Source of the DNA: an uncultured Planctomycetia bacterium
GTDB taxonomy: Bacteria > Omnitrophota > Gorgyraeia > Duberdicusellales > 4484-171
DNA: 64,000 nt
Assembly: GCA_964629655.1 (NCBI GenBank)
Contig: CAZVQU010000001.1
Location: 20,788-84,787, forward strand
Reading direction: 5' to 3'
The notes beneath the pieces are model-generated. The model saw nothing but the letters and a program-made list of their open reading frames with translations, had not been told where the DNA came from and made no database searches. Below are positions 28,368 to 57,298 of this stretch, piece after piece. The first letter of the stretch is position 1; each line of letters opens with the position of its first letter. The position numbers and the translations under genes are program-made.

Positions 28368-29789
28368 TCAGTTATTTTTTAAATCGCTTTTAACCCTGCA
28401 CAAACCAACGGCACTCTTTATATATCTCTTAAATTCACGAAAAGATTTTATGCCAAAACTAATCTTTGCCAAACGGGAAGGCCTGAAGTAGAATTTGCGA
28501 TAAGCTTCGATTGTGCAGCGTTCAATCGCTTTGTCAGAAACATCTGTCCAGGGAGTTGGAAGACGCTCTTCATCTGCTGTTCCTAAAATATACTCCTTCC
28601 AGTAATCTCTGCCTGTGATTTTCTTTACCGAGTCATACAAAACTGTTGTTGGCTTGGCTATAGTCTTATGAAATTGTGCATAGTCTAAATTTAGTTCCGA
28701 AGCAAAACTAATAGTATCTTTTATGGTATCCATGGTATCTCCCGGCGCACCTATAAGAAAAAAACCCAAAGTTAAAATTCGTTTCTTCTTGGTTAAACTG
28801 ACAATTTCTCTAATCCTCTCCAGCGTTATACCCTTGCTTGCATTATTCAAAATATTTTGATTCCCAGACTCTACGCCATAATAGATTCTGGCACAGCCCG
28901 CACTTTTCATCTCATTTAATAATTCTTCATCTATTTGATCAACTCTTGCCCTACAAGCCCAAGATACATCAATTCTTCTTTTTCTTATCGCTTTACAGAT
29001 CTCAATTATCCGTTTTTTGTCAAAAGTAAAAACGGGATCAAAAAATTCTATTTCGCGTATATTGAATTTTCTAAAACACTGCTCAATTTCATCAACAACA
29101 CCCTCTGCCTTCCTGGCAGAATAAGGTATGTTTTTCATGTGACAGAATTCACACTTACCTGGACAACCCTTGGAAGTAATCATTATCGTGAAGTTCTTTC
29201 TTTTAGACATAACTGTGTAATACTTATGATTAGGCAATAGCTGCCTGGCAGGAAAAGGCAAAGTGTCAAAATCTTCTTTTAATGTATCGGGAGGATTAAT
29301 AAAAATCTCTTCCCCGCGCTTATAGCAAATTCCTTTAATCTTGGCAATATCCATTTTTTGTTCTATTGCAAGCAATAACTCCGGAAGAGACTGCTGGGCA
29401 GAACCAATAATCCCGTACTCTATTTCTTTATGCATCATTACTTCTTTAGGGTAGAGTTCTAGCAAAACATTTCCTACAATAATTGTTAAATTTGTATGCT
29501 GTTTTAAAAACTTTATCCACTCTAAAGTCTGACGAAACATATACACCGTGAGCATAAAACCCAGCATATCCGGTTTAAAACTATTGATCCGTCTTAATAC
29601 CTGTTGTTTTGATAGTCTCGGTTGGCAATTAGCGTCTATTATTACTGCTTGATGCCCTGCTTTTTGAGCAATGGCAGCAGCATACGCTAACCCTAAAGGG
29701 GGAGGCTGTGTAAACTCTCTGCTTACAACATCTATATCTTCCTCAAACCTTTTGTGGTCAAAAGGGGGGAAAATAAAGGCAATTTTCAT
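28368..29789 (-). CDS. B12-binding radical SAM protein
   Basis: 473 aa: TIIVGNVLLELYPKEV plus SKGCPGKCEFC. Confidence 0.8.
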   Translation of the reverse strand: MKIAFIFPPFDHKRFEEDIDVVSREFTQPPPLGLAYAAAIAQKAGHQAVIIDANCQPRLSKQQVLRRINSFKPDMLGFMLTVYMFRQTLEWIKFLKQHTNLTIIVGNVLLELYPKEVMMHKEIEYGIIGSAQQSLPELLLAIEQKMDIAKIKGICYKRGEEIFINPPDTLKEDFDTLPFPARQLLPNHKYYTVMSKRKNFTIMITSKGCPGKCEFCHMKNIPYSARKAEGVVDEIEQCFRKFNIREIEFFDPVFTFDKKRIIEICKAIRKRRIDVSWACRARVDQIDEELLNEMKSAGCARIYYGVESGNQNILNNASKGITLERIREIVSLTKKKRILTLGFFLIGAPGDTMDTIKDTISFASELNLDYAQFHKTIAKPTTVLYDSVKKITGRDYWKEYILGTADEERLPTPWTDVSDKAIERCTIEAYRKFYFRPSRLAKISFGIKSFREFKRYIKSAVGLCRVKSDLKNN

Positions 29790-29796
29790 AATTTTG

Positions 29797-31362
29797 TCAA
29801 TTATTATACCATTTTGGCTTTTTCAGCCTCATAAATCCGGTAAGCCCTTTATGCTTCTCTCTTCCTAAAATGGTATCCCTAATTCCCAAAAACATCATTC
29901 TCAAAGTGTTTCTAAGAAACCACCAATAAAGTCCACGTTTATGCTTATAGGCAGAAAATAACCCCCTTATGAGCCAATGAGGACGATATAAAACATAGCG
30001 TTTATTGAGTTCTATATTCAAACTAACAAAATCCTCTTTAGATAAACCAGCAAGAGAATACATTGTGGGAGTAGACCAGTCATATTTTGTAAAGTCTTTT
30101 TCTTCCAAAAGATTATTTGCTTTAGCTTCCTGGTAAAGATAAGTACCGGGAACCGGAGCAACCGGATGAAAAGCAGGGTAGTCTACATCTATCTCCACAG
30201 CATACTTTACCAAATCCAACATTGATTCTCTAGTATCAAAGGACATGCAAGTGACAAATGTTCCCTGTCTAAACACCTGAGGATATCTTTTTTTAAAAAC
30301 CGCGAAAACTTCTTTTACTAAATCGCGGGTATATCCAGACTTATTAATTTGCTTAAAATCCTCAGAACAGACTCGCTCTATGCCAATTAAAGGATGCACT
30401 AATCCTGCTCGTACCATTTTTTCTAAAATTCCTAAACGTTCATCCCTCAAGGTAAAATCGGCACGTAAAAATGCCCACCAATGCAAGTCCTTATAATTTT
30501 TCTTAAGGAGTCTTTCACAAAATTCATCTGACCATTTCGGATCTACATTAAAAGTAGGATCGGCCCAAATTATGTAGCGCCTATTATATTTATGATAAAC
30601 AATATCTACTTCCTCCAACATCCTATCCACACTCTTACTTCTATATCTCGGATTCACTTCCAAATTCCCTTTCTCTATATCTACCTTAGCTTGGCTGCCC
30701 CAGAATGTCCAAAGAGAACAAAACTTACATCTATCTATACATCCGCGAGAATGTTCAAGGGTAACACTTTGTGGCCAAAGATATCCAAAAGGAGAATATT
30801 TACCCATTGGCATAAGATCATAAGCAGGAATTGGCAACTTATCTAAATCCTCAATTAATGGCCGTAGGGGAGTTGTAACTATCTCTCCATTATTTTTGTA
30901 AGCAATCCCTTTTACCCTAGATAGATCAATTTTATGTATAAAGGCGTCAATTAATTTTACTATTGTTTCTTCTCCTTCAAACCTTACAATAATATCAATT
31001 GGAAAGTTGGATAGGCTATAATCTACCATCCAAGAGAAAAAATGACCTCCTCCAATTGTAATCACCTTTGGATTTATTTTCTTAGCCAGTCTAAACAAAC
31101 TTGCTGCTTCGTGATGATAAAGAGCTTCTTCTCCAGCTCCTACCATATCCGGCTTCTCTTGCTGTAATATCTCCCCTAAAGTCCTCCATCCTATTTTCAA
31201 TGGAGGACAATCTATAATCTTTACCTCAACCGCAGGCAATTTCGCCCTTACAGCTGCGGCTATACAAGGTAAACCTAATGGCAAAAGAAAATTATCGGAT
31301 TCGTTTATAAAAGGCCAAATATACCGCGGAGGCCTTACCAATAACATCTTTTTTATCCTCAT
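29797..31362 (-). CDS. B12-binding radical SAM protein
   Basis: 521 aa: ITIGGGHFFSWMVD...VRFEGEE plus SRGCIDRCKFC. Confidence 0.8.
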   Translation of the reverse strand: MRIKKMLLVRPPRYIWPFINESDNFLLPLGLPCIAAAVRAKLPAVEVKIIDCPPLKIGWRTLGEILQQEKPDMVGAGEEALYHHEAASLFRLAKKINPKVITIGGGHFFSWMVDYSLSNFPIDIIVRFEGEETIVKLIDAFIHKIDLSRVKGIAYKNNGEIVTTPLRPLIEDLDKLPIPAYDLMPMGKYSPFGYLWPQSVTLEHSRGCIDRCKFCSLWTFWGSQAKVDIEKGNLEVNPRYRSKSVDRMLEEVDIVYHKYNRRYIIWADPTFNVDPKWSDEFCERLLKKNYKDLHWWAFLRADFTLRDERLGILEKMVRAGLVHPLIGIERVCSEDFKQINKSGYTRDLVKEVFAVFKKRYPQVFRQGTFVTCMSFDTRESMLDLVKYAVEIDVDYPAFHPVAPVPGTYLYQEAKANNLLEEKDFTKYDWSTPTMYSLAGLSKEDFVSLNIELNKRYVLYRPHWLIRGLFSAYKHKRGLYWWFLRNTLRMMFLGIRDTILGREKHKGLTGFMRLKKPKWYNN

Positions 31363-31587
31363 TTAAAATCCTATATTTGAAGCTGTTTTTTTGTATTGCA
31401 AAATAGCGGGTTTAGAAACCTAACCTTCACTCTAAGTATTATTTATAGCATACATCTACCAAAAACTCAAGCTCTATTGGGGTAAACAGGTGGGAAACTC
31501 TCGCATTCTTAGAGAAAAACTTTATAGGAAAAGTTGTAAAAGGTGATATAGAAACATAAGGATATTTGGAATGAATACTATTTCATA

Positions 31588-33111
31588 TCAATACGACTCA
31601 TTACCTCTGCTACCGACCGGATCAAAGCCAAAAAGCTCTTCCAGACGATCAGGAATTTTTTCAGTCAGAATCACTAAAGCAGTCATGGCTAACTTTAATT
31701 TTTCAATGAAAAGTTCACAGCTTCTCCGATGGGGAACGGCTAAATCATTATTAAAATAATAATTCACGTTAAGGCAAGAACCAGTGGTACGGCATACACT
31801 AAATAAATCGCAATCACAGCAAAAATTAAACCGTCTATCTATGGCTTTAATAAACGCGTCGTGCTTAAATTTATCAATTCCTTTATGGACATTACCTAGA
31901 CTAAACCGCTCTACGCCTAAAAAGGAAGTGCAAGGATATATATTCCCATCACCAGAAACAGCAATTTGCCCCGTAGCAGCAGGGCAGCCTCCACTTACCT
32001 CATGATTATAATATAGCTTCTGCATTAGTTTAAAGAATCTGTTGAAAAACGTTTTTCGGTAATCCAGAAAACCTTCTGTAACTTGATCAATGTAGAGCAA
32101 AGCAAGCCTTTCATACTCCTTAAACAACTTTTGATATTCCTGACCGGTTTTAAAAAAAATGTCTTCTCTCTGAGGAGTAATCTTATGGCAAGCATCCTCA
32201 CTCTCAAAAAGCTCTATTCTTTCAAACCCCAAATCACGTAAATTTTTATATAACGCTACCATATCCGAAAAAAAAGGCGTCACGGTGGTTCTACCCACTA
32301 ATCGTTTTTTTACGTAATCAGGCATGTTCTTAAGATTTTTCGCTATTGTGTCAAAGCTTCCTTTACGGTTTTCATAGGGCCTATTGTTATCATGAATATT
32401 CTTAGGGCCATCAATGCTTACAGCAATCTGAACTCCGCTATCAATCAAATCTTTAGCTATCGAAGGCTTAAGCAAAGTTCCATTTGTAGCCAAGAGAAAA
32501 TGAAAACTAACACCATGATCTTTTTCTTTTTGACGGCAATAACGCACTATCTCCTTGAGAACTTCTACTTTCTCTAATGGTTCACCTCCGTAAAAATCAA
32601 CAACCAGGCGTTTTTCATCTCCACATAATTTTAGCAAAAGGTCTACTGCTTTATGCGCTGTGCCCAAAGACATATCGCTTTCCTTTTGATCACCGCTTTT
32701 AACTGAAGAAGACGACTGTTCAAAGTCGGTATTAGAATACTTACCCTGGTCATTCCAGCAATAAATACATCTAAGATTACAACCTGAGGTTATATTTAAG
32801 GTTAAATCAGTAATGTAAGAAGAAACATCTCTATCTTCCCGTGATAAATCTTTTTCTCCCCTGGGAGGAAATAGATTGCTTATGTCAGGAGGGACGGAGC
32901 ATTTTCTGGCTAATTCATTTGCGATTTCTTGGGATAGACTTTGGCTCGTAGCGTTTATGGCATTATTCCACCTGCCCAAGGCATGATAAGCCTCAGGAGA
33001 AAGGTCGTAAAAATCTCCCTTTTCGGTAGAAACACCTATGTACTGTCCTAATCGTTTAAATAAATAAACCGGGGAAGAAACTTTTTTATTGGTTTTATCT
33101 AAAAAAGGCAT
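31588..33111 (-). CDS. Radical SAM protein with C-terminal SPASM/twitch domain (AnSME-like maturase family)
   Basis: 507 aa: TSGCNLRCIYCWND (CxxxCxxC), a GGEPL SAM-binding motif, and a C-terminal Cys-rich region (GGCPAATG...YPCTSF...FCCDCDLFSVC). Confidence 0.75.
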   Translation of the reverse strand: MPFLDKTNKKVSSPVYLFKRLGQYIGVSTEKGDFYDLSPEAYHALGRWNNAINATSQSLSQEIANELARKCSVPPDISNLFPPRGEKDLSREDRDVSSYITDLTLNITSGCNLRCIYCWNDQGKYSNTDFEQSSSSVKSGDQKESDMSLGTAHKAVDLLLKLCGDEKRLVVDFYGGEPLEKVEVLKEIVRYCRQKEKDHGVSFHFLLATNGTLLKPSIAKDLIDSGVQIAVSIDGPKNIHDNNRPYENRKGSFDTIAKNLKNMPDYVKKRLVGRTTVTPFFSDMVALYKNLRDLGFERIELFESEDACHKITPQREDIFFKTGQEYQKLFKEYERLALLYIDQVTEGFLDYRKTFFNRFFKLMQKLYYNHEVSGGCPAATGQIAVSGDGNIYPCTSFLGVERFSLGNVHKGIDKFKHDAFIKAIDRRFNFCCDCDLFSVCRTTGSCLNVNYYFNNDLAVPHRRSCELFIEKLKLAMTALVILTEKIPDRLEELFGFDPVGSRGNESY

Positions 33112-33365
33112 AATGAAAGGGATCTTCCTCTAGCGAAGTTATTCTCAATCAGTGGACAAAAATGCCTACCACAATACGCGCCCTGAACGGCAATACCGCG
33201 ATAGTTTCTTTTTACTCTTTTTTGCTTTGTTTATCTTTTTCGCACGCATTTTAATCTCCCCCTTCGTTTATCTTTTCGCACGCATTTTAACTTCCAAAAG
33301 ACACAAAACGTACTGCCTGTAGAATAACACAGCATTCACCTTTGTCAAGAAATACCTTCTGGTCA
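33112..33365. promoter_or_regulatory. 254-bp intergenic region upstream (in the minus-strand sense) of the rSAM-SPASM gene, carrying a near-perfect 25-26 bp direct repeat x2
   Basis: GTTTATCTTTTTCGCACGCATTTTAA at about 33228-33253 and GTTTATCTTTTCGCACGCATTTTAA at about 33266-33290. This is the largest non-coding gap in the cluster. Confidence 0.35.
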
Positions 33366-34217
33366 TTATCGTTTCCTTTTAGAATTCCATCGGAAAATTT
33401 TGCAGATAGAAGGCTTAATTAAATTAATAAAGACTATCCGCGGAATATCATAAACCAATAAAGGCAGCACTTTCAGTAAATACCTTTTAAAACCATCATT
33501 TTTAAAAATTGAATGGAGTCGATTATGAAAACAGAAGCATTGCCTCAATCTGTTAGGTGTGCCCGAACTATTACCTGCATGATAACAGTTTACTTCCGGG
33601 ATAAACAACGCCTTCCATCCTCTTTTTTGCGCCCGCCAGGCCAAATCCACATCCTCAACTAAAAAGAAAAATCGTTCGTCGAAATAACCGGTTTCCTCTT
33701 TTAACTCTTGCAGCATCTCCCTTTTATAAAAAGCACAAGCTGAGCAGGCACCAAAAATGCTCCTTGCCTCGTTAAATTCTCCACTACCCCTTCCTCTACC
33801 GATATCATAAAACCTCCGCATCCAGGAAAGATGTATTCCACAGGAATAAACAGTTCGATTACCAAAATTTAATATTTTTGGCTGTAATATTCCTGTATTA
33901 GAAGACAGATCGTCTATTATATTTACAGCCTTTACCAGAAAATCTTCTTCCAAAACCGCATCGCAATCTAAAGCCAATAACCACTCGCCCCTTGAGACGT
34001 CAATACCCTGATTCCTCGCTCTAGAAGCACCAAGATTTTTTCTGTTTTCAATTAAACTAACCTTGGGGTATTCTTTAACCACCTCAAGTGTGCCGTCACT
34101 TGAAGCATTATCAACAACAATTACCTCGAAATCCTGATAGTCTTGACGAAATACAGAATCCAGGCAAGGCCTGATGCAATCCTTGCTATTGTAGGTTAAA
34201 ACTACTATTGAAATCAT
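33366..34217 (-). CDS. Glycosyltransferase family 2
   Basis: 283 aa: MISIVVLTYNSKDCIRPCLDSV...VVDNASSDGT, the classical GT2 N-terminus with DxD. Confidence 0.8.
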   Translation of the reverse strand: MISIVVLTYNSKDCIRPCLDSVFRQDYQDFEVIVVDNASSDGTLEVVKEYPKVSLIENRKNLGASRARNQGIDVSRGEWLLALDCDAVLEEDFLVKAVNIIDDLSSNTGILQPKILNFGNRTVYSCGIHLSWMRRFYDIGRGRGSGEFNEARSIFGACSACAFYKREMLQELKEETGYFDERFFFLVEDVDLAWRAQKRGWKALFIPEVNCYHAGNSSGTPNRLRQCFCFHNRLHSIFKNDGFKRYLLKVLPLLVYDIPRIVFINLIKPSICKIFRWNSKRKR

Positions 34218-35280
34218 TTTCTAAAATGTTGGCGAATCTCTCTCCTAAAATGTCCAAAGAATAGGTTTCTTCTGCTGTTTTACGGGCGGCTATCCCCAGA
34301 TTTTTTGTTAAATCAGGGTTTTTTATAATCTGCTCCATGTTAAAAATAAATTCATTCCTGTCGGAGGCCAAAAAACCGTTGCATCCATTTTTAATTATAT
34401 GGTTTGCCTCCCCTACACAAGATGCAATTGTCGGCTTTGCTTTGGCCATATATTCAAATAATTTAACCGGGCTTTTCGACAAATTAAAACGTGTTTTATC
34501 TAAAAGAGGTATCAGACCACAATCTACACTATCCAAATAAAAAGGAATATCGTTGTAATCAACCCATCCTTTATAAATTAAATTCTTACAGTTATAACTC
34601 TTGATTAACTTAATCAATTCCCGGCCAAAAATTCCATCTGCGGCAATAAAAAGTTTAATAAAAGGATATTTTTCGTAGAGCGCCAAAAAACACTCTATTA
34701 TAAACTTTATATACCCTATTAATTCAATTCTGTTAACTGAGCCGTGCCAGGAGAATACAAAATCATCTCTTTTTTTACCAAAAAACGGCTTAAATTTACC
34801 GGTATCTACCGCTGTCGGGATATAGTAAACCTTTCGGTTGAACTGGGAGAGATAATCTTTCAGATAATTGCTTGCCGCAATACAAAGCCTACTGCTTTTA
34901 GCAAATAGACGACTGAGACACTCGGATCTTGAACCCCATCCCTCTCTTGCCTCCCAGTCATCCATATCAAATACAAAAGGGGTGTTTCTTAATTTAGCAA
35001 CGAGCCATGCCGGAATCGTATGGTAATTGAAGCGGTTTATTACAAAAACTGAGTTTTTTGCCTCTTTTAAGAATATTCTGAATCCTTTATACGAATATTT
35101 TAATTTCCTTCCAAAGGTAAACTTAGTCTCATCCTTTCCTGACTTTGCCCCCAATCTATCCACGAAAGAGAAAACAGATGAATTAAGGCCTTTTTTTTTA
35201 AGCTTCTCTGAAAACCCCCAGCAGCGTATCCTAGCTCCCGGGTCTTTACGGCCTTCCCGGGTTATAAATAAAAATTTCAT
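34186..35280 (-). CDS. Glycosyltransferase (GT-B, family 1/4-like)
   Basis: 364 aa; overall GT-B organisation with a C-terminal SKSPVKLFEYMAKAKPTIAS region resembling the GT1 sugar-donor domain. Confidence 0.5.
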   Translation of the reverse strand: MKFLFITREGRKDPGARIRCWGFSEKLKKKGLNSSVFSFVDRLGAKSGKDETKFTFGRKLKYSYKGFRIFLKEAKNSVFVINRFNYHTIPAWLVAKLRNTPFVFDMDDWEAREGWGSRSECLSRLFAKSSRLCIAASNYLKDYLSQFNRKVYYIPTAVDTGKFKPFFGKKRDDFVFSWHGSVNRIELIGYIKFIIECFLALYEKYPFIKLFIAADGIFGRELIKLIKSYNCKNLIYKGWVDYNDIPFYLDSVDCGLIPLLDKTRFNLSKSPVKLFEYMAKAKPTIASCVGEANHIIKNGCNGFLASDRNEFIFNMEQIIKNPDLTKNLGIAARKTAEETYSLDILGERFANILENDFNSSFNLQ

Positions 35281-36440
35281 TTTAATATTTTCTCATAAGC
35301 ACAAAGCAGAGAGTCAGCAGTGTAATTCCAGTTGTATTTTTCCTTAATCCTGGCTCTTGCGCCATTAGATAATCTTTCTCTTAAATCCGTATCCCTAATC
35401 AATCTTGAAATACCTTCAGCTAAAGAATGAAAATCTCCTTCCTTGGTCAAAACCGCACAACCGCCAGCCATACTCCGCACTTCCCCCACAAGGCTTGCAA
35501 CCACGGGCTTACCGCTTGCCAAATATTCCACGATTTTTAAGGGACTTTTGCAACAGCTAACCTTAGTTTCTTTAAACGGCGCAACACAAATATCAGCAGC
35601 AGCAATATAATAAGGTATATTTTTATGAGCAATAGCTCCAGTAAAAATGATTTTTTTTCTCAAGCCTAAATCAAAAGCTAGTTTCTTTAGCCTCTGTTCT
35701 AAAAACCCTTCTCCGACAATCATAAACAAAACATTTTGATGTTTACGGAGAACTCTACCCGCCGCTTTAATAAATAAATCGGCATATTGAGCTCCATGGA
35801 GCTGTCCTATATATAGTACCAGATCTCCCTTTATATTATACTTTTCCTTAATTCGGCTTCCGTCTAAGCCAGGCTTGAATTTCTCTAGATCCGCACCTAC
35901 CGGTGTCTCAAAAATAAAATCTTCTTTTACCCCGAATTTACGAGTTAATTTTTTTAAATAGCTGCTTGCGCAGGAAACAGAATCGGCTAAAACAGGAAGC
36001 CACCTTTCTAAAACCTTAAAAGAAATCCCTATAAACCTTGAATGCAAGCCTCTACCACAAGACTCATACCATATTTTTTCTTCCCAATCATCCCAATCGT
36101 AATGAAGCGGTTTTTTAGCAATATAGGCTGCGATTGCCGCAGGGACAGCCGCATAATGATGGCACTTCTGAAAATGAACTATATCCGCCCACCGGCATAA
36201 CTCTATAAGTTTTTTTGTATTTTTAATAATCGCAATAGGCGACGGCATCCTGTCTAATGGAATTAATTCTATGGTATCTACATTTTTAGATAAGTGTTTC
36301 TCGTCTAAAGCTAAAGGAAAGTAGCACAGCTTGACCTTGTGTCCCTTTTTTATAAATTCATTGGCAATACTTTTAATCCTTATAGTCCATGGTTCGGATT
36401 TATCAAATAAATCATGAGGATGAATCATTAAAATATCCAT
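35277..36440 (-). CDS. Glycosyltransferase family 4
   Basis: 387 aa with a C-terminal CKSPLKIVEYLASGKPVVAS motif typical of GT4. Confidence 0.7.
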   Translation of the reverse strand: MDILMIHPHDLFDKSEPWTIRIKSIANEFIKKGHKVKLCYFPLALDEKHLSKNVDTIELIPLDRMPSPIAIIKNTKKLIELCRWADIVHFQKCHHYAAVPAAIAAYIAKKPLHYDWDDWEEKIWYESCGRGLHSRFIGISFKVLERWLPVLADSVSCASSYLKKLTRKFGVKEDFIFETPVGADLEKFKPGLDGSRIKEKYNIKGDLVLYIGQLHGAQYADLFIKAAGRVLRKHQNVLFMIVGEGFLEQRLKKLAFDLGLRKKIIFTGAIAHKNIPYYIAAADICVAPFKETKVSCCKSPLKIVEYLASGKPVVASLVGEVRSMAGGCAVLTKEGDFHSLAEGISRLIRDTDLRERLSNGARARIKEKYNWNYTADSLLCAYEKILK

Positions 36441-36654
36441 ATATCAAGTACTCTCTAATCAGCTTGGATAATTTTCCTTAAACGGATAGGCTGGCCCTAT
36501 CCCGATGCGATAGACACTTTAAAGCAAAGAATTCTTATATCAGAAAACTCTTTAGACTACGGTTTAGGTATATTCTCAGGAGTAAAAAGGAAAAAAGAAC
36601 ACTACGCTTTTCTTCCTTTATGCTTTTTTAGATACTTTAAATATTAAATAGAAT

Positions 36655-37065
36655 TTATCTTGTCCTTAATTTACCTCTTAGAATGTCTTTTATCTCCAGG
36701 ATTAACTTCTCCTTGTCAGAATCTAGATGTTCTTCGAGCTTCGGCGGTAACGCGGCAAATACATCCTCGGCATCAATATGATTTTCAAATTTTTCATAGG
36801 CTAAGCTCATGGTTTTGGCTACAATTTCAGCAAGACTCGGCAATAAATAATCTCTGATTTCCTGATCACTTAATTCAAATAGGGGGAACTCTTGAGGGTA
36901 CATAACTTCATTCATAGCATCCTGAAAGGCATCGATGATCTCTCTTTCACTAACAGCCTGGGCATACCCCTTAGGTCCAACCAGACAAATTAGCCCTACA
37001 ATAACTATCCCCAGCATCACCTTTCTGTTTAATTTAAACATTTTCCACCTCCCTTTTTTTGCCAT
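36655..37065 (-). CDS. Small exported or membrane-anchored protein, unknown function
   Basis: 136 aa with an N-terminal hydrophobic segment (VMLGIVIVGLICLVGPKGYAQA) and an acidic remainder. Confidence 0.35.
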   Translation of the reverse strand: MAKKGRWKMFKLNRKVMLGIVIVGLICLVGPKGYAQAVSEREIIDAFQDAMNEVMYPQEFPLFELSDQEIRDYLLPSLAEIVAKTMSLAYEKFENHIDAEDVFAALPPKLEEHLDSDKEKLILEIKDILRGKLRTR

Positions 37066-39596
37066 TATCCGGATTTTCTTCCCCCCAGCAATATTCTACC
37101 TTTTATTTTCGCATAAATCCCGAAATATGCAATATAGATAAGAACATAAACAGAGACAGAAATTAAAATAATCCATTTAAATATAGAATGTTTTGTTATA
37201 ATTGCTTCCTTTCGCTGAGGTAATCCTTGCAAATCATTAATAGAATTTTTAAGCAAGTCCATTCGTTTGGATAGATTTTTACTTCTTTTTATATTCTCAA
37301 AAATGGCTTCTTTGCCTTCTCTGATGTTTGTTTCCATAACCCTTATCCCCAGACTGTAAGCCAAATTCAATAATTCACAAGCCCTCCTTTTTCTCACTTC
37401 ATAAGTATTTCCGTCGTAGGTCTCCCATAAATAATGCCAATTTTCTTTAGGTAATGGTCTCATACCAAACCTTTGTTTACCTTCTTGAAAAACTTCAGTT
37501 CCTGCAACCAGATGTAGCGTATTAATAGATTTAATAGTGTCTATGTATGCGCTATTTCTTTTGATAAAATTGCTAGTCATTTCAAAATCACGATCACCCT
37601 CGCCGGGAAAACCTATTATTACAAATATTTCAGTCTCGATACCTGCCATTTTAGCAAATCTAATATTCTTCGCGGAAATTTCTGCGGTAAACGTCTTCCT
37701 CATTAATTTGAGAACCTTGTTAGACCCAGACTCCAAACCTATCTGAAGCTTGTGGCATCCTGCCTTTCGCATTTTTTTAAAAAACTTAAAATTCATATCT
37801 TTACGCGGGGCAATCTGGCCTGTCCATCGTATCCTTAAATTATTTTCTATTATTTGACTACAAATCGCTTCTAAATTATTTAAATCGCCATTCAAAACAT
37901 TATCTGTAACTGTAAAATCACTTATACCATTTATCTCTTTGTGGTATGTCAACTCATTTACGATCCTCGTAACAGACCTTTTTCTGTAAAGAGAAAATAG
38001 ACGCCAATTCTTACAAAAAGCACATCGTGCCATGCATCCCCTAGACCACTCAACCAGAAGAGATTTATCATATAGACTCATATCAAACTCTTCATATGTA
38101 GGAAAAGGCACTTTGTCCAAAGGCGATAGAGCTGCTCTCTCTTTATAAATCCAGCTTCCATTGCTCTTCACGAAACATCCCGCTACATCCTCTATATGCT
38201 TTTTGCTCTTAAACCTGCTCACCAGATCTACCAAGGCTTCCTCTCCTTCGCCGACAACAAAAGCATCAATATAGTTATCAATATTATCCAGAAAAATCTT
38301 CCTTTGCTCAGGAGTAGAAGTGGCCGGGCCTCCTAAAACTATTCTTTTATCAGGAGCTTTGTCCTTTATTCTTTTTATGAATTCTATAGTCAGCCTTTCC
38401 TTTGGGTCAATTACAGAAAACCCTAAAATATCACAATTATACGATAGAATATTATCTACCGAATTTTCAATATCTTCTTTGAATATTTCGAGAATTAACG
38501 AAAACGTATTCTCATTAGACCAAAAGTTTTTGTTCTCCGCATGCCAAAGCATCTTAAAGTCTGGATGGTTCAAATAAAAACTTTTATTTAAATCCATTAC
38601 ATTAGCACTTACACCCTTATCACGTAAATAGGCATTTAAATACCCTACTCCTATATGAGGGCTCTCCTGAGCCCAAGGAGGAAGGTTGATAAGAAGAAAA
38701 TCGCCATTGGATTTTATCTTTTCTTCAAGTACTGCCTCTTCACATTTTCTGCACAAAAATTCTTCCGGCATACCTCTTTTGCCGGAAATCATTGTCCATG
38801 TCTGTTCTCTACTCCCCTGCCAAACATTATGGATAGTTTCATCATTCAAATCCCCTAAGATTACGTCTCTTCTCCAATCCATACAGCACAATATAACTTT
38901 TCCATCTTCAACGATATGAATCATCTCATCAGCCCATATTGAATTACATCCGATAACTTTTTCTTTATGATAAACTTTCGGTAAATTGATTACATTACCC
39001 CCGCGAGAAACAGGCCCGTCAAAATGACTAATTTGCTCTACCCCCTTATCTTTCCAAAAGCTTACCGTTTCCTCCTTCTCTTCCAAAGTTAAATATTGGT
39101 GCTTTAGAAAAGTAATCATTAAATAATTTTTTATATCTTTATTTTGTTTCACTTTATCTATAAATTTGCTTATTCTTTCCATAGCTATTTCATAGGGTAT
39201 TTGCATCGATTTCTCAATTGTTTCTCTTCTTACACCATGAAAACTTATTCCTATCCAGTCAAGTTTCGAACCAATTAGCTTTTCGCTAATTTCTTCAGTC
39301 AATAAAGCTCCATTGGTGATAATATGAACAGCCGCCTGAGGTACTTTCTCCTTAGCGTAATTTATCCTCTCTACCAAAAAGGGATCAGTTAAAGGTTCGT
39401 TATTCATGTAAAGAATAATTCTTTCAACACCCCCATATCCACTGGTTTCATCGATAATTTTCCTATATAATTCCATATCCATGATTTTAGATGGAAATAA
39501 ATCCTTGATTTCATTGTGCGGACAAAATACGCAAGAAGCGTTACATAGAGAGGTAGTCTGAATTGATAAATACTTCGGGAAAATTATTTTATTCAT
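37065..39596 (-). CDS. Fusion protein: N-terminal radical SAM/SPASM module plus B12-binding radical SAM module, with a C-terminal TM helix
   Basis: 843 aa. Module 1: SIQTTSLCNASCVFC, GGNV, CCMDW (SPASM-like). Module 2: B12 domain (RIVLGGPATSTPEQ...FVVGEGEE) plus SRGCMARCAFC. Ends with a hydrophobic helix, WIILISVSVYVLIYIAYFGIY. Confidence 0.75.
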   Translation of the reverse strand: MNKIIFPKYLSIQTTSLCNASCVFCPHNEIKDLFPSKIMDMELYRKIIDETSGYGGVERIILYMNNEPLTDPFLVERINYAKEKVPQAAVHIITNGALLTEEISEKLIGSKLDWIGISFHGVRRETIEKSMQIPYEIAMERISKFIDKVKQNKDIKNYLMITFLKHQYLTLEEKEETVSFWKDKGVEQISHFDGPVSRGGNVINLPKVYHKEKVIGCNSIWADEMIHIVEDGKVILCCMDWRRDVILGDLNDETIHNVWQGSREQTWTMISGKRGMPEEFLCRKCEEAVLEEKIKSNGDFLLINLPPWAQESPHIGVGYLNAYLRDKGVSANVMDLNKSFYLNHPDFKMLWHAENKNFWSNENTFSLILEIFKEDIENSVDNILSYNCDILGFSVIDPKERLTIEFIKRIKDKAPDKRIVLGGPATSTPEQRKIFLDNIDNYIDAFVVGEGEEALVDLVSRFKSKKHIEDVAGCFVKSNGSWIYKERAALSPLDKVPFPTYEEFDMSLYDKSLLVEWSRGCMARCAFCKNWRLFSLYRKRSVTRIVNELTYHKEINGISDFTVTDNVLNGDLNNLEAICSQIIENNLRIRWTGQIAPRKDMNFKFFKKMRKAGCHKLQIGLESGSNKVLKLMRKTFTAEISAKNIRFAKMAGIETEIFVIIGFPGEGDRDFEMTSNFIKRNSAYIDTIKSINTLHLVAGTEVFQEGKQRFGMRPLPKENWHYLWETYDGNTYEVRKRRACELLNLAYSLGIRVMETNIREGKEAIFENIKRSKNLSKRMDLLKNSINDLQGLPQRKEAIITKHSIFKWIILISVSVYVLIYIAYFGIYAKIKGRILLGGRKSG

Positions 39597-41629
39597 TTAT
39601 TCACATTCATAGATATGGGTATCCTGATATCATAATACTCCTGCAGGTTAAAACCATCAAATTGGATAACGTCTCCTGTTTGATAATGTTTCTCGCAACC
39701 TTTGGAAGATTCTCCCTCATTAGCTACATTATCGCGCAATATTTCATACACCTTTTCTTTCACGCGTGAAGAAATAAAAACATCCACCGGATTATCAGGA
39801 ATCGAAAAAAATATTTCATCGTCAGCAACTGCTGTAATGTCAAAGATGATTTTTATTGATGATAGACATTTTTTCAAAATATAAGCAATCTTTAAGGAAA
39901 ACATTATGCTTTCGCTACGAATATAAAAATAGAATACGCTGGTTCTTAAAGAAATTATTTCGTTAACTGAATCAAAGGTTTTCTGCGCAAAAATATCCGA
40001 AGCTATCAACGTATCCATATGCGATGACCAAAGATGCCTATTCTCATATGCCCAAAGGTAATGGAATCTCTCTCCCGCAGAATTATATAACTTAATATTA
40101 AAATCATAAATAGTCGGACTAAACCCCTTATCCTTCAAGTAAGAATAGATAGACGCGGTTTCGTATTGAGGTAAATCGATTCTTGCCGGAGGAACGACGA
40201 TCAATGCTACTGCATTAGCATCCTCGCCCTTCCTGAATCCTGCCTGGTTAACAATCACATTCTTAATCGCTAAATTCGACAGGATAAAAATCATTTCACG
40301 CACCCTTTTAATTCTCTCTTCTGGCCCTATGCCATTTTCGTCCACATAAAAACCTAAACCTTCCTTTAACCCCTGCTCGTTAATCCCAAAATCTTTAAGA
40401 TGAGTGCCGACATAAGAATTGTTCATAATCGAGAAAGAAGACACATTAGTAACTGTTGTGATATATTCCTTATTCTCCTTTATCGCCTTGGCTGTCTCAC
40501 TAAAATCATCTCGAGTCTCTGAAGGAAAACCTACAATAACATTAACATCAGTCATAATTCCTGCCTGATGGGTTAGCTTTATTATTCTCTTTGCGTCAGA
40601 TGAATCATAAAATTTGTTCATTTTTTTAAGAATTCTATCAGAAAAACTCTCAACCCCATAGCATAGAGAAAAACATCCTGCCTTTTTCATTTTTTTGAGA
40701 AGTTCAAATGTCATATCTTTTCTTATCATTGCATAGCTACCCCATGCGATATCCAATTTCGATTCAATGATACGGTCGCAGAGTGCTTCTAAATGTTTCA
40801 AATCTCCATTACAAGCCAAGTCGCAAAAAGAAAAAGCATTTCTCTTGTTTTCCTCTATGTGATATTTGAATTCTTCAACTATCCTTTCCGGAGATTTGAC
40901 ACGAAATTGTCCGCACATTAAATGATCTATACAAAAAACACATCTTCCTACGCAGCCACGAGTAATTAATATCGGGATAAAACTATTTTTATACTCTTCT
41001 AATTTAAAATCAGTACATTTTGGAAAGGGCAAACTGTCTATATTATCTATACAATAAGGTGTCGCGGGTTTAAAAAACTTATCTCTATCTGTAATTAACC
41101 CTTTTATTCCTTCAAAACTATCAGATTCTCTACTAAGTATTTTCTCTAAAGCCTCTTCTCCTTCGCCGACAACAATAATATCTATACTAGGGATATCTTC
41201 CTTGAATATAAGTCTCCTATCAATATCCCAAAAACAACCGGTTCCTCCGAAAATAATTTTTTTTCTTTTATCCTTTTTCTTAATCAGTGTTGCTATTCTT
41301 CCAGCAACACCTATGCTTGAAATATTTACAGAAAAACCGATATACTTAGCATCATACGACAATATCTCATCAACCAAGCTATCAATCTCCCGACTAAATG
41401 CCTTACAGACATTCCTGGTTATTTCAGGAATGGGCATAAAGTTAATATTGCAAATTTCCCAGAAAATACGCTTTTTTTTATCAGCTTTATGATAAAGCCT
41501 TAAATTAAAATCAATAATTTTAGGATTGAGACTCCTGCATCTTAAATACTCGGCGATATAAGCCAGCCCTAAAGGGGGCATGCTGGGTTCCCAAGGCGGA
41601 GGCATTACAAGAATAATATCTGCTGACAT
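39593..41629 (-). CDS. B12-binding radical SAM protein with an additional C-terminal B12-binding-like domain
   Basis: 678 aa: B12 domain (KIIFGGTGCFWDID...IVVGEGEE), TRGCVGRCVFC, then a C-terminal region of about 250 aa whose start (LPQYETASIYSYLKDKGFSPTIYDFNIKLY) resembles the B12-rSAM N-terminus. Confidence 0.7.
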   Translation of the reverse strand: MSADIILVMPPPWEPSMPPLGLAYIAEYLRCRSLNPKIIDFNLRLYHKADKKKRIFWEICNINFMPIPEITRNVCKAFSREIDSLVDEILSYDAKYIGFSVNISSIGVAGRIATLIKKKDKRKKIIFGGTGCFWDIDRRLIFKEDIPSIDIIVVGEGEEALEKILSRESDSFEGIKGLITDRDKFFKPATPYCIDNIDSLPFPKCTDFKLEEYKNSFIPILITRGCVGRCVFCIDHLMCGQFRVKSPERIVEEFKYHIEENKRNAFSFCDLACNGDLKHLEALCDRIIESKLDIAWGSYAMIRKDMTFELLKKMKKAGCFSLCYGVESFSDRILKKMNKFYDSSDAKRIIKLTHQAGIMTDVNVIVGFPSETRDDFSETAKAIKENKEYITTVTNVSSFSIMNNSYVGTHLKDFGINEQGLKEGLGFYVDENGIGPEERIKRVREMIFILSNLAIKNVIVNQAGFRKGEDANAVALIVVPPARIDLPQYETASIYSYLKDKGFSPTIYDFNIKLYNSAGERFHYLWAYENRHLWSSHMDTLIASDIFAQKTFDSVNEIISLRTSVFYFYIRSESIMFSLKIAYILKKCLSSIKIIFDITAVADDEIFFSIPDNPVDVFISSRVKEKVYEILRDNVANEGESSKGCEKHYQTGDVIQFDGFNLQEYYDIRIPISMNVNK

Positions 41630-41635
41630 TTTATA

Positions 41636-43033
41636 TTAACTATTAATTTTTATTTCTCCGTCGAAATACAAATATTTACCCGAGAAATATCTTTTATTAT
41701 CCGCTTTGTAGCATTTCAAAACTCTGGCATTAAAAATAGTTGAAGTATTCAATACAGCCATACGGTATCCTTCCTTTTGTGCTTTATCGCACAATGATAC
41801 TCGTGGCAGCTCCTTGATAGCATCAGCTTCAATTTTAACCGTATTTACAACTTTATTATCCTCCTCAAAAAGAGTTGGCCAATCATGGTCAAATAACGAA
41901 GGGGCAATACCCCTGGCCCCGTTGCTGGATGACCACCGATTATACTCCTCCCTTAACATAATATTAACTTGCTGTTCACCTTCAATTAACACTTGTCGCA
42001 AAAATTCAATTTCTATTTTTATTCCTATTATTTCTTTTCCCTTTAATTCTATCTCCCAGGTTTGGATTATAGGCAATGACTGCCACTTTCCCTTGAGCGT
42101 CATCTTCTTATCGTTTATCTTACTGACCTGCCAATCGGCATGTTCTGAATCCTGCCACGAGCTATCAGTAAAAATAGATACGTATAACCCAAAACCACTA
42201 GTTACTCTAAAGCCTTTTGAAAAAATACTCCCTTTGCCTTTATCAAAATAAAAACACAGCTTTTCATTTCTTAAAGTATATCTTTCAAATTCATCAAAAA
42301 TAGTTTTAGAAGGATAAATGTAGGCAATGGGTTTATTTAAATCGTGTATTTTGGATACAAAACTATTGAAATCTCTAGCTAAAACCAGTAATCGACGACT
42401 TCTAACCGAATCAAAACAGTGTTTCCTGTGGCAACAACCACCATAAGAAGGATAGTTGAGGGTAAACGCCTCCGAGCAAGACATCACAGTTGTAATTTCA
42501 TTTACCAAGCCAATGTTTTCACGCAAGAAATTAACTGTTTTATCACGATCAAGTTGCTCCTCTAAAGGATGCCCGAAAACTAAATTTATACCGACATCAA
42601 TCCCTGCGCTCCGGTATGCCTTTAATGCACTTAAAACGTCCCTTGTGGTAAATATCGCTCCTATTTTACTAAGTAAATTATCTGAAGCGCTAAATAACTC
42701 AACGATCACCTTCTTGCATCCTGCTTGTTTCATCCGCACTATAGAATCCGGTTTTATGCCAGGGTTTATTATCGCCGGAGCTGACCATTCTATGCGCATT
42801 TTTTTTTGCACAATAGCACGACAAAACTTGTCTAACTCCTCGATATCCAAATTACAAAAATCCACAAATTCAAACTTATCAATTCTATATTTTGTTAAAT
42901 AATATTTGATTTCGGATAAAAAGTGCTTGCAAGATTTAAGCTCTACTTTTAAATCGTGCCGTAAAGCACAAAGCTTATGCCAACATTCATTCCCTGTAGA
43001 ATGCTTTACATTCTCAGGCCAAACATCTTTCAT
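41636..43033 (-). CDS. Radical SAM-like domain lacking the CxxxCxxC cluster motif, fused to a C-terminal W-rich beta-domain (putative non-catalytic paralog or decaying gene)
   Basis: 465 aa. The N-terminal 200 aa align with the post-motif half of the B12-rSAM paralogs (RIEWSAP...MKQAGCKKVIVELFSASD) but carry no Cys triad and no B12 domain. The C-terminal 200 aa match the repeat on Wzt (GFGLYVSIFTDSSWQDSEHADWQV...WQSLPIIQTWEIE). Confidence 0.5.
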   Translation of the reverse strand: MKDVWPENVKHSTGNECWHKLCALRHDLKVELKSCKHFLSEIKYYLTKYRIDKFEFVDFCNLDIEELDKFCRAIVQKKMRIEWSAPAIINPGIKPDSIVRMKQAGCKKVIVELFSASDNLLSKIGAIFTTRDVLSALKAYRSAGIDVGINLVFGHPLEEQLDRDKTVNFLRENIGLVNEITTVMSCSEAFTLNYPSYGGCCHRKHCFDSVRSRRLLVLARDFNSFVSKIHDLNKPIAYIYPSKTIFDEFERYTLRNEKLCFYFDKGKGSIFSKGFRVTSGFGLYVSIFTDSSWQDSEHADWQVSKINDKKMTLKGKWQSLPIIQTWEIELKGKEIIGIKIEIEFLRQVLIEGEQQVNIMLREEYNRWSSSNGARGIAPSLFDHDWPTLFEEDNKVVNTVKIEADAIKELPRVSLCDKAQKEGYRMAVLNTSTIFNARVLKCYKADNKRYFSGKYLYFDGEIKINS

Positions 43034-52300: not shown

Positions 52301-52755
52301 ACGAATATTGCTAAAGCAAAAGCAAGCCGCATGTACATACCCTGAGAATAGTATTTAATAGGTGCATCAATAAACTCACCCAAATCGGCGAACTTTATAA
52401 TATCGCCCATCCTTTGCTTTAGGTCAGTCTCGCTTAAGCCATAGATAGCAGCATTAAGGTTTATATTTTCTATTCCGGTAAACTCAAGGTTAAACCCCGC
52501 TCCCAGTTCCATTAAGGCCGATACTTTGCCTTTAATATGGACTTCCCCTTTATCGGGAATCAGCATTCCGGCTATCAGCTTTAACAAAGTTGTCTTACCG
52601 GCTCCATTTTTGCCAATAATGCCTATAATGTCGCCTTTCTCTACCTTGAAATTGATATTCTCCAGCGCCCAGACCTCTTCCCAGCAAACATTCTTCTGTT
52701 TGATAAACTTTATCCTGTATTTTTCCCAAACACCGTTAAAATTTATTACTTTCAT
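49315..52755 (-). CDS. Wzt/TagH/KpsT-type polysaccharide ABC-transporter ATP-binding protein with a C-terminal extension of about 900 aa carrying four repeats of a W-rich beta-domain
   Basis: 1146 aa: Walker A GKNGAGKTTLLKLIAG, signature YSQGMYMRLAFALA, Walker B LLIDDILAVGD, H-loop SHD. Four repeats follow, each with GLxxS..W.D..WQV/WEV...W...IWxxE and a QQGNFP-like motif. Confidence 0.8.
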   Translation of the reverse strand: MKVINFNGVWEKYRIKFIKQKNVCWEEVWALENINFKVEKGDIIGIIGKNGAGKTTLLKLIAGMLIPDKGEVHIKGKVSALMELGAGFNLEFTGIENINLNAAIYGLSETDLKQRMGDIIKFADLGEFIDAPIKYYSQGMYMRLAFALAIFVEPDILLIDDILAVGDVEAQEKCIKKIFELKQMGKTIILVSHDMDIVSKLCDKLILLEKGRIVQEDLATKVVPYYLETVGDKKGIAVLEKEGLRVIFNNGKVVLSYKGFPITKAMGGYVSFLIPSLNSWSSSLNLFWQVESFGADRIVAEGKSYDGSFSQIWMFQLENNCLQWQTEVRGEGIKQPHVDLFFMPQYARWQTLDKGSDFPSFVSKSNWQDLGLSSYFDAMVGLSGDWHHQDRPNPGLILEQKAKDGLFKLFNAGYEQEARVVQWDLALKAKNSVFIKIFPKECEFLGCIRETKQKFLLRQQKEQDRLCAEHTINSGDVKFFADINEKALRLYYKGKEITQEAGLHSSFFVNNVWYDLSSCEWQVKRKGETLILSFFWDCLKFKQLWEISFSDNKLLWQVDSQFPQPFEVRLFKFGLLFNPAYKSFFCGCQQGNFPQYSNSWQDMSLIEPQAKLCGLREQSEFPAIILENRESHECIIQNSDRQRQCRALQLSISKEDIMKRKSSFLIPISIWKEENPIAAYLIEQKEQYRRKQQEEQELFVLSRTIACGNLRLFADEESMALRIFFKNKELTHACGLHYSFNNSKERFGLSNAQWKIENVSGKRLILTLSYPQVSVIQIWDIQYIDENTLRVKVEIKSDGPISFIDEGVRLELKDCYQRWMASEEEGNLLTSRYINNVAPIRLKDNRIPGIILISKDTKRNPRVLLRCTLPSENRFFNIYKRREKGSKCIGIYSGAIASRKKKIISLGRHTCFEGEIIVGKTAKIGKLTRKRSAVEINSNCLKFAFNQGKGGIFLKKGAEELTSGLGVYTSVRSLGIWYDSYQAVWEVKRKENNKLTVRGFWPHIVLSQIWHIEMVGKNLISWQVGMEIHERLDLEICQANIMLCSQYENWTVSKDSCGNFLNEYTQEYDILPFRFWYGKAKEIVAKAEILPGVCFQNDTEDENLRAIIENTDDLYHARLLQYQKANTYKMLPGKYPYFKGAIKVEF

Positions 52756-57293: not shown

Positions 57294-57298
57294 TGGTA

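Follow-up and report, generated by a model that had tools for sequence, protein, structure and literature searches.

BtrN, the 2-deoxy-scyllo-inosamine dehydrogenase of the butirosin pathway (PDB 4M7S/4M7T), is a radical S-adenosylmethionine (rSAM) enzyme that carries out a two-electron oxidation of the aminocyclitol 2-deoxy-scyllo-inosamine, and the Twitch domain is defined as a truncated SPASM domain with four cysteines and a single auxiliary [4Fe-4S] cluster (PMC9012708). A second group, the cobalamin-dependent (class B) rSAM enzymes, includes OxsB, MgmA/QCMT, CysS, TokK and TsrM, in which an N-terminal Rossmann-type B12-binding domain is followed by a core with the CX3CX2C motif. Enzymes of these two kinds are joined in a single 843-residue protein encoded on the minus strand (positions 37065-39596) of a 64,000-nucleotide stretch of contig CAZVQU010000001.1, from an uncultured bacterium of the Omnitrophota; we refer to this whole stretch as the window, and to the N- and C-terminal parts of the protein as the S and B modules.

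In size and fold the S module matches BtrN, although the two are only 17–19% identical in structural alignment. BtrN acts on a carbohydrate-derived cyclitol and is encoded in an aminoglycoside cluster, whereas S is joined to a B12-rSAM module and a membrane anchor and lies in a glycan locus with an ABC transporter of the Wzm/Wzt type. The B module has the same order of domains as the class B enzymes named above and is 14–18% identical to them; unlike them, it has a C-terminal domain of its own (residues 691–790) and a C-terminal membrane helix.

Three systems in which rSAM enzymes act together, or together with sugar-modifying enzymes, offer further comparisons. In the synthesis of glycerol monoalkyl glycerol tetraether (GMGT) lipids, the B12-dependent methylase Gmm acts preferentially on what the SPASM enzyme Gms has made (PMC13459092). 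The archaeal pairs Gms/Hbs and Gmm/Hgm, which form GMGT and H-type glycerol dialkyl glycerol tetraether (H-GDGT) lipids, resemble S-B, as it is proposed to work, in that an auxiliary-cluster rSAM enzyme and a B12-rSAM enzyme are encoded together and act sequentially on one membrane-resident substrate. They are separate proteins, however, where S and B are fused; Hbs, a complete SPASM enzyme, is a relative of AhbD rather than of BtrN; they act on a lipid chain; and a Wzm/Wzt or glycosyltransferase context has not been described for them. FbiC, the fused CofG-CofH F0 synthase, has two rSAM cores in one polypeptide that catalyze consecutive pathway steps and are separate proteins in other lineages; its cores are of the same simple class, without a Twitch domain, cobalamin domain or anchor, and its product is a soluble cofactor. 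Finally, in the HpnI/HpnK/HpnJ route to the hopanoid cyclitol ether, the enzymes are a glycosyltransferase, a deacetylase and an rSAM enzyme by which a lipid-attached amino sugar is remodeled. The logic of this route, and of AprD4, matches the neighborhood of the gene (a 796-residue rSAM protein, a polysaccharide deacetylase and a family 2 glycosyltransferase) and not the S-B protein itself; moreover, the 796-residue neighbor does not reach the HpnJ cutoff of 578 bits, and no hopanoid genes are present.

Both halves of the protein are of known kinds. What appears to be undescribed is their covalent combination, the conserved tail anchor, the chains of several rSAM modules in various combinations, and the fixed association with Wzm/Wzt glycan loci. 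None of these features is represented in a curated family. Literature searches found no description of a fusion of a Twitch or SPASM rSAM to a B12-rSAM, of a membrane-anchored class B enzyme, or of BtrN-like enzymes in polysaccharide loci. Two recent reviews of B12-rSAM enzymes and a review of lipid-modifying rSAM enzymes say nothing of a SPASM fusion, the tail anchor, the poly-rSAM chains or the Wzm/Wzt association, and a 2026 Omnitrophota preprint only names radical SAM as one domain found in giant proteins.

Domain organization of the S-B protein

The open reading frame (ORF) begins with ATG and is uninterrupted through 843 codons, a stop-free length expected by chance with a probability of 4e-29 at the composition of the window (about 36% G+C). 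The Pfam Radical_SAM profile (PF04055) matches the protein in two stretches (E 3.4e-37, above the gathering score), and each of the two cores has a CX3CX2C motif, which places the protein in the radical SAM superfamily. The SPASM profile matches residues 222–286 (32.4 bits against a cutoff of 21.5) and the B12-binding profile (PF02310) residues 372–458 (40.6 bits against 32.1). Three short motifs, CNASCVFC (residues 18–25), CCMDW (237–241) and CMARCAFC (521–528), are located where a preliminary description of this DNA had placed them, and both halves, which that description read as rSAM modules of two classes, pass the Pfam gathering scores. The module boundaries can be revised to residues 1–290 for S, 291–297 for the linker, 298 to about 790 for B and 805–832 for the anchor (Table 1). 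From its motifs the protein is predicted to hold three iron-sulfur clusters and one cobalamin. An AlphaFold2 model built from a 39-sequence alignment has a mean pLDDT (predicted local distance difference test) of 86.7.

The S module is a BtrN-like Twitch enzyme

By every measure used, the closest solved relative of S is BtrN, the archetype of the Twitch enzymes. A phmmer comparison with BtrN gives an E-value of 6e-13 in two segments, corresponding to the rSAM core and the Twitch domain, with all four auxiliary-cluster cysteines paired, and the core aligns with BtrN residues 7–104. A profile of 26 S-family members matches BtrN at 2.9e-35 among solved structures, the next being YydG (1.4e-10) and anSME (2e-9). 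Likewise, a Foldseek search with the AlphaFold2 model finds BtrN (TM-score 0.71–0.78) and then the sugar-acting enzymes BlsE and DesII. None of the 26 S-family members reaches the cutoff of any NCBIfam model.

The cysteine pattern defines the class more closely. Enzymes of the SPASM subfamily have seven cysteines in the arrangement CX9-15GX4C ... CX2CX5CX3C ... C, which bind two auxiliary clusters, AuxI and AuxII. The corresponding region of S has only five (217, 237, 238, 282 and 285), in the pattern C217-x14-G232-x4-C237 C238 ... C282-x2-C285, and this Cys/Gly pattern is invariant in all 22 aligned S-bearing sequences. The CX2CX5CX3C block is absent from S, and none of the 22 aligned homologues has a CX5CX3C continuation, so that a full SPASM domain with two auxiliary clusters can be ruled out despite the Pfam SPASM match. 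C217, C237 (C238), C282 and C285 pair in alignment with the cysteines that hold the auxiliary cluster of BtrN, so the domain is of the Twitch type, with a single auxiliary cluster. The preliminary description, which made the first 330 residues a SPASM-type rSAM, thus holds as regards an auxiliary-cluster enzyme, for which the profile matches pass; it does not hold as regards a full SPASM domain, and the module is 290 and not 330 residues long. S differs from BtrN in its extra invariant cysteine, C238, and in having NNEPL in place of the YGEPL of BtrN.

An exhaustive search with S by itself found 138 cluster representatives at E-values up to 1e-30. There are 137 matches that the first homologue set did not already contain; 113 of them stand alone as proteins of fewer than 360 residues, and most of the 25 free-standing relatives listed keep the C...C(C)...CxxC spacing. 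Since the more distant relatives of S are mostly free-standing, the module can evidently act alone.

The B module is a class B enzyme without a close characterized relative

In the B module an rSAM core comes after an N-terminal B12-binding domain of the Rossmann type. This is the architecture of the cobalamin-dependent class B enzymes, and at this level B clearly belongs to the class. In a Foldseek search it matches MgmA (9ccb), a protein glutamine methylase, at the top, and OxsB, TsrM, CysS and TokK, all at E-values of 6e-20 to 4e-16, with AprD4 after these; a profile of 20 B modules compared with solved structures gives OxsB (2e-20), MgmA (2e-17) and CysS (8e-11). No curated family is reached, however. 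The TIGR03975 model (rSAM C-methyltransferases of the maturation of RiPPs, peptides of ribosomal synthesis with post-translational modifications) scores 138.1 bits against a cutoff of 281.85, and the PhpK, HpnJ, BchE and MgmA equivalog models score 120 against 600, 89 against 578, 91 against 481 and 93 against 360 bits. The second half of the protein had been called a canonical B12-rSAM, which is correct for its domains and not for any curated family threshold; B belongs to class B architecturally and has no close characterized relative. The C-terminal domain of B (residues 691–790) is highly conserved (NWHYLWETYDGNTY...), and Pfam models do not match it. A search of the 64-kb window yielded neither a cobalamin riboswitch nor cobalamin genes; its only Rfam matches are two tRNAs.

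The fusion is genuine

A fusion read from a single metagenomic contig invites the question of whether a sequencing frameshift or a mis-assembly has merged two neighboring genes. Two points lend this some plausibility: genes of the operon overlap by 1–4 nucleotides, so that one insertion or deletion could in principle merge them, and split forms are present in relatives. However, contigs assembled independently from SRR24302412 and SRR8146440, as well as a 762-kb NCBI contig, encode an identical 843-residue protein, and a JGI member of the 90%-identity cluster of the protein is also 843 residues long. The same layout of S, B12-rSAM module and anchor is common to 17 homologues at 41–86% identity, and in a further 25 S precedes a pair of B12-rSAM modules and the anchor. 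The occurrence of the identical protein in several assemblies together with the same-layout relatives therefore rules out a frameshift artefact, a case which the preliminary description had named as refuting it and to which we assign a negligible probability. In addition, the linker, which lies between 'CEEA' and 'DFLLINLPPW', has 8 to about 60 residues depending on the homologue and is always in frame, and free-standing B proteins of about 545 residues begin exactly at the junction, with 'MDFLLVNLPPW'. Because the linker varies in length in frame and free-standing B starts at the junction, this is a true gene fusion, and we regard the protein as almost certainly a real bifunctional one.

Fusion, fission and chains of rSAM modules

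The 120 best homologues were classed by module content, with R denoting a B12-rSAM module and TM the membrane anchor. The most frequent layout is S-R (30 of the 120), mostly consisting of S and a B12-rSAM of the type encoded by the upstream gene A, in proteins of about 1020 residues without an anchor. It is followed by S-R-R-TM (25), R-TM (20), S-R-TM (17) and R-R-TM (9). Smaller classes include S fused to a family 4 glycosyltransferase (GT4; homologue P0115) or to a methyltransferase (P0116), and in P0106 an acyltransferase domain (PF01553) is attached to two B-type modules. The nearest of the S proteins termed 'stand-alone', P0107 and P0109-P0111, carry S and a Rossmann B12-like domain with no rSAM core. 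In databases these proteins are labeled merely 'radical SAM protein'.

Within the Omnitrophota the modules are found as S-B, S-B-B, S-A with a separate B, B-B, and chains of four to five cores. Split partners share contigs, as in loci L004, L005 and L007, where S-A lies beside a separate B-TM, and there is a swap of partners in that A is separate from S-B in the window and S-A is encoded with a separate B in a sister clade. Parsimony on a neighbor-joining tree of 69 terminal B modules, a tree without support values in which some proteins are truncated at contig ends, requires at least 27 changes of architecture. The S and B modules are thus evolutionarily coupled: the repeated fusion and fission, the start of free-standing B at the junction, and the co-occurrence of unfused S-like and B12-rSAM genes in glycan loci of other phyla strongly support the functional link between the two enzyme classes that had been proposed from the window. 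Such shuffling is 'Rosetta-stone' evidence on which uncharacterized rSAM enzymes work together.

The longest chains are single polypeptides headed by S. P0123 is S-B-B-B (1820 residues), P0140 is S-B-A-A-B (2331 residues, five CX3CX2C motifs), and P0152 (2279 residues) and P0121 (1781 residues) have four or five rSAM cores. The S-headed chains of four or five cores come from Omnitrophota, and one of them, P0129 (2036 residues), from a metagenome-assembled genome (MAG) annotated as Riflebacteria.

The C-terminal membrane anchor

The only strongly hydrophobic stretch of the protein, with a 19-residue Kyte-Doolittle mean of 2.42 at residues 804–829, is at its extreme C terminus, and there is no N-terminal signal peptide, the arrangement of a tail-anchored protein. 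In the AlphaFold2 model it forms a single long helix (residues 805–832) after a disordered tether (794–803). The C-terminal membrane helix anticipated in the preliminary description is thereby borne out by hydrophobicity, by the model and by its conservation in homologues, and the protein is very probably tethered to the membrane. It is the only rSAM protein of the locus with a hydrophobic helix.

The tail is conserved in about 70 homologues as a basic cluster, FKWLILI..YTFFYIxYFWIYM and RNKVLLGG(R/K)K; read across the homologues, it has the form …KKRSIFKWLILI..YTFFYIxYFWIYM.LRNKVLLGGRK. A second variant, …LPYL.LIL.LTLIAE.YLWILKKLR.MIIFPGS, is present in a Kaelpia-like group. The last 64 residues have no NCBIfam match to known C-terminal sorting signals (PEP-CTERM, GlyGly-CTERM and others), even at E-values up to 5. 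Conservation of this extent exceeds the needs of a passive anchor and so suggests, on the strength of the residues kept, that the helix may have a specific partner in the membrane.

The genomic locus

The S-B gene is part of a long minus-strand array (Table 1). In order of transcription this begins with genes for a flavin amine-oxidase-like protein, Wzm, a 1146-residue Wzt and a 796-residue HpnJ-like rSAM protein, and continues with a 1299-residue triple rSAM-SPASM protein, a 465-residue rSAM remnant, A, S-B, a 136-residue protein, two GT4 enzymes and a family 2 glycosyltransferase (GT2). Beyond these are a PapB-like rSAM/SPASM maturase, five B12-rSAM proteins, a polysaccharide deacetylase, two DUF2079 and two U32 proteins, a membrane polyferredoxin, a double-cubane protein of the HGD-D type with a BcrAD-type ATPase, and a PMT_2 protein (a GT-C glycosyltransferase). 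At least 13 rSAM cores in the window have Pfam support.

The order Wzm, Wzt, HpnJ-like rSAM, triple SPASM protein, S-B modules, small protein, GT4, GT4 and GT2 recurs in related loci with enough flanking sequence, all of them from Omnitrophota-type MAGs. In other lineages, six of seven stand-alone S-like genes lie among glycosyltransferase or sugar-nucleotide genes, and four of the seven share their cluster with B12-rSAM genes. Locus L018, for example, has three S-like genes with an NDP-sugar epimerase/dehydratase, carbamoyltransferases and two B12-rSAM genes, and L019 has an S-like gene with a fusion of rSAM to a family 9 glycosyltransferase (GT9), a GT2, a polysaccharide deacetylase, YfhO and a B12-rSAM. 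In L015 (3095-5930) and L016 (8608-12571) a stand-alone or GT4-fused S directly follows a gene of the sulfatase family (PF00884), and the S relatives of L015 adjoin CysD/CysN-like genes, a hint that in sulfated-glycan loci the S module may serve another purpose. A role like that of the anaerobic sulfatase maturases was considered for the fused loci and rejected, as a tblastn search of the window and of L001-L012 gives no sulfatase gene.

Several of the neighbors have features of their own. Wzt has a C-terminal extension of about 900 residues with no Pfam match, and a stretch like its residues 463–637 is a separate small ORF among the rSAM genes of L008, L009 and L010; this piece may be a glycan- or partner-binding domain. 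The 796-residue protein scores 244 bits with the HpnJ model, and its nearest solved relative is the aminoglycoside diol-dehydratase AprD4 (1e-25). For the 1299-residue protein the best NCBIfam models (tungsten-cofactor maturase, AhbD and twitch rSAM) are all below cutoff, and phmmer with the whole protein finds no match in the PDB at an E-value of 1e-6. The 465-residue protein, kept in L001 at 58% identity, looks, from its partial profile match, like a degenerate rSAM remnant. The C-terminal 228 residues of A (39593-40279, minus strand) resemble the start of a B12-rSAM (…VVPPARIDLP…YLKDKGF…) with no rSAM core after it; P0107 and P0109-P0111, of S and a Rossmann domain only, are comparable. No family match for the 136-residue protein is found in Pfam, also at a relaxed threshold, or in NCBIfam, and Pfam at a relaxed threshold gives nothing usable for the Wzt extension, the N-terminal 315 residues of the 796-residue protein or the C-terminal part of A.

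ORF-free gaps of 214–254 nucleotides (31363-31587, 33112-33365 and 36441-36654) split the array into sub-operons. There are no Rfam matches in the three gaps, and a scan for promoters and terminators around 36300-37200 finds nothing above shuffled expectation. A speculative role for the polyferredoxin, the double-cubane protein and the ATPase of the latter would be an ATP-driven supply of low-potential electrons to the rSAM array at the membrane.

Table 1. Features of the S-B gene and its neighborhood; positions are those of the window.
Feature	Position	Strand	Evidence or remark
Whole gene, 843-residue S-B fusion	37065..39596	-	Stop codon 37065-37067; ORF list, duplicate contigs, AlphaFold2 model
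S module rSAM core, residues 1-205, NNEPL replacing GGE motif	38982..39596	-	Pfam Radical_SAM first stretch, Fer4_12
First CX3CX2C, CNASCVFC	39522..39545	-	Invariant in 18 of 18 sequences covering the motif
Twitch (truncated SPASM) domain, residues 214-290	38727..38957	-	Pfam SPASM; Cys alignment with BtrN
Fusion linker, residues 291-297 (LEEKIKS-NG region)	38706..38726	-	Family alignment
B Rossmann-type B12-binding domain, residues 298-470	38187..38705	-	Pfam B12-binding; aligns with OxsB cobalamin domain
B rSAM core, residues 510-690	37527..38069	-	Pfam Radical_SAM, residues 516-678
Second CX3CX2C, CMARCAFC	38013-38036	-	Invariant in 32 of 32 sequences
Family-specific C-terminal domain of B, residues 691-790	37227..37526	-	Conservation in two family alignments
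Anchor helix, residues 805-832, conserved basic flank, LLGG tail	37101..37184	-	Kyte-Doolittle, AlphaFold2, homologue tails
Wzm	52752-53534	-	Pfam ABC2_membrane; syntenic; heads operon
Wzt-type ABC ATPase, 1146 residues	49315-52755	-	Pfam ABC_tran, NCBIfam TagH/Wzt-like; syntenic
HpnJ/AprD4-like B12-type rSAM, 796 residues	46935-49325	-	Syntenic in L001-L005, L009
Triple rSAM-SPASM protein, 1299 residues	43039-46938	-	CX3CX2C at residues 36, 553, 963; syntenic in L001-L005, L009
465-residue protein	41636-43033	-	C-terminal half of Radical_SAM profile only, 26 bits, below gathering score; no CX3CX2C
A, 678-residue B12-rSAM with second Rossmann-like domain	39593..41629	-	Stop overlaps S-B start (ATGA)
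136-residue protein, N-terminal signal or transmembrane segment	36655..37065	-	1-nucleotide overlap with S-B stop; syntenic
GT4	35277-36440	-	Directly downstream; best-conserved neighbor, 59-78% identity in eight loci
Second GT4	34186-35280	-	Directly downstream
GT2	33366-34217	-	Directly downstream
PapB-like rSAM/SPASM maturase	31588-33111	-	228 bits
Five B12-rSAM proteins	29797-31362, 28368-29789, 26854-28359, 25418-26833, 20333-21811	-	
433-residue protein	6689-7990	-	Weak B12 match and CX3CX2C
Membrane polyferredoxin (Fer4_5)	15063-16043	-	
Double-cubane/HGD-D-type protein	12483-13709	-	NF040772, 247 bits, below cutoff of 350
BcrAD/BadFG-type ATPase	11677-12471	-	
Unannotated 386-residue ORF	13778-14938	-	Between polyferredoxin and double-cubane protein
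Peptidase-U32-family proteins	19158-20336, 21821-22876	-	Among B12-rSAM genes
Large DUF2079 membrane proteins	16921-19161, 22914-24503	-	
Two adjacent tRNA genes	57205-57382	-	Upstream of locus; sole Rfam matches in window

A proposed role in glycan tailoring

We propose that S-B is a tail-anchored bifunctional enzyme that tailors a lipid-linked glycan prior to its export by the ABC transporter, a role we consider probable, and we favor a carbohydrate as its substrate with a similar, moderate degree of confidence. According to this proposal, the adjacent GT4, GT4 and GT2 enzymes would build a polyprenyl-linked glycan or a glycolipid head group. The S module would use a SAM-cleaving [4Fe-4S] cluster together with an auxiliary [4Fe-4S] cluster on C217, C237, C282 and C285 and, by analogy with BtrN, would abstract hydrogen at a carbon of a sugar or cyclitol and carry out a two-electron oxidation of a secondary alcohol to a ketone, with the auxiliary cluster taking the electron. 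The B module would most likely methylate an unactivated carbon of the same substrate or catalyze another cobalamin-assisted radical rearrangement; neighboring rSAM proteins would modify the glycan further, and Wzm/Wzt would then export it. The catalytic body is presumably on the cytoplasmic face, because iron-sulfur clusters, SAM and reductant are needed. From the covalent coupling and the anchor we infer, as had been suggested from the window, that the two modules act in turn on one substrate at the membrane, with S acting before B only by analogy with Gms and Gmm. The specific chemistry of oxidation followed by methylation, which is an argument by analogy, is a tentative suggestion that may well prove wrong.

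Several observations weigh against this proposal. The pTM of the AlphaFold2 model is only 0.62, so the model gives no defined interface between S and B, and all NCBIfam matches are far below their cutoffs, including the best, TIGR03975. There are basic residues on both sides of the anchor helix, so its topology is ambiguous from the sequence. The class B enzymes OxsB and BchE catalyze non-methylating reactions, so methylation is just the most common outcome. And since the locus encodes a PapB-like maturase, and some Omnitrophota have lipid-modifying rSAM enzymes, the substrate could be other than a glycan.

The last of these points leads to two other classes of substrate. In the first, the modules would tailor membrane lipids, acting on the hydrocarbon chains or head groups of, for instance, membrane-spanning or branched lipids, with the anchor holding the enzyme near its substrate. 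The sequential action of SPASM and B12-rSAM pairs (Gms/Hbs and Gmm/Hgm) on glycerol dialkyl glycerol tetraether (GDGT) lipids is a precedent; Hbs homologues occur in Omnitrophota and Mss homologues in some Omnitrophota MAGs, P0106 combines B-type modules with an acyltransferase, there are sub-cutoff NCBIfam matches to HpnJ, HpnR and a ladderane-type lipid rSAM, and a membrane anchor suits a lipid substrate. However, S is specifically BtrN-like, its BtrN match being 25 orders of magnitude ahead of the next, with the tetraether synthase 7tol at 8e-7; the conserved cassette consists of Wzm/Wzt and three glycosyltransferases, stand-alone S relatives are in sugar loci, and among the genes of the 64-kb window none of the fatty-acid, isoprenoid or ether-lipid kind was found. 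Lipid tailoring fits the BtrN affinity and the Wzm/Wzt and glycosyltransferase context less well than a glycan substrate does, and we consider it unlikely. Maturation of a peptide or protein, in the manner of the SPASM maturases and proteusin-type B12 C-methyltransferases of RiPP pathways, is more improbable still. TIGR03975 is indeed the best NCBIfam match of B, MgmA is at the top of the Foldseek matches, a PapB-like maturase (31588-33111, 228 bits) is in the locus, and a small gene directly follows S-B. But the TIGR03975 match is at 138 bits against 282, the first CX3CX2C motif begins at residue 18 and so leaves no room for an N-terminal peptide-recognition domain, the transporter is of the Wzm/Wzt type and not a peptide exporter, and the 136-residue protein has a signal or transmembrane segment and is weakly conserved (25–36% identity). 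Intergenic gaps of more than 60 nucleotides contain no precursor-like small ORF, and a RiPP precursor is rejected on this ground.

A different possibility concerns the division of labor and not the substrate. S might be an accessory head, relaying electrons through its auxiliary cluster or priming or repairing the cobalamin modules, with no sequential chemistry. This would explain why S is N-terminal to one to four B12-type modules, as it always is in the arrays S-R, S-R-R and S-B-A-A-B, and it would be in keeping with the exchange of partners (A and S-B in the window, S-A and B in the sister clade) and with P0107 and P0109-P0111, in which the Rossmann B12-like domain next to S lacks an rSAM core. 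Against it, S keeps an invariant CX3CX2C motif, the NNEPL SAM-binding motif and all of the Twitch cysteines, its distant relatives are mostly free-standing (113 of 137, below 360 residues), and its nearest characterized relative, BtrN, oxidizes a substrate; an accessory role is accordingly judged improbable, at about the level of lipid tailoring or a little below it.

Implications for the Omnitrophota cell surface

Glycan tailoring by S-B may be one instance of a wider scheme. It is conceivable, if rather doubtful, that S-B is the minimal member of a set of poly-rSAM assembly-line proteins docked at Wzm/Wzt, with a BtrN-like head, one to four cobalamin modules and the conserved anchor, which would perform programmed radical oxidations, C-alkylations and possibly carbocycle formation on a lipid-linked glycan. 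If so, a heavily C-methylated or cyclitol-containing envelope polymer would be characteristic of the Omnitrophota, and the radical modifications might be a terminal signal that is read by the 900-residue Wzt extension.

Auxiliary-cluster and cobalamin-dependent rSAM enzymes are usually studied apart, on antibiotics, cofactors, peptides and lipids; here they are fused, tethered and encoded in a polysaccharide-export locus. The arrangement suggests that glycans of the cell surface undergo radical chemistry, for example C-methylation or the formation of keto-sugars or carbocycles, an area that has hardly been explored. The S-B protein offers a compact single-polypeptide target on which the coupling of a Twitch dehydrogenase-type step to a B12-dependent step can be approached, and it may reveal the envelope composition of the ultra-small, host-dependent Omnitrophota.

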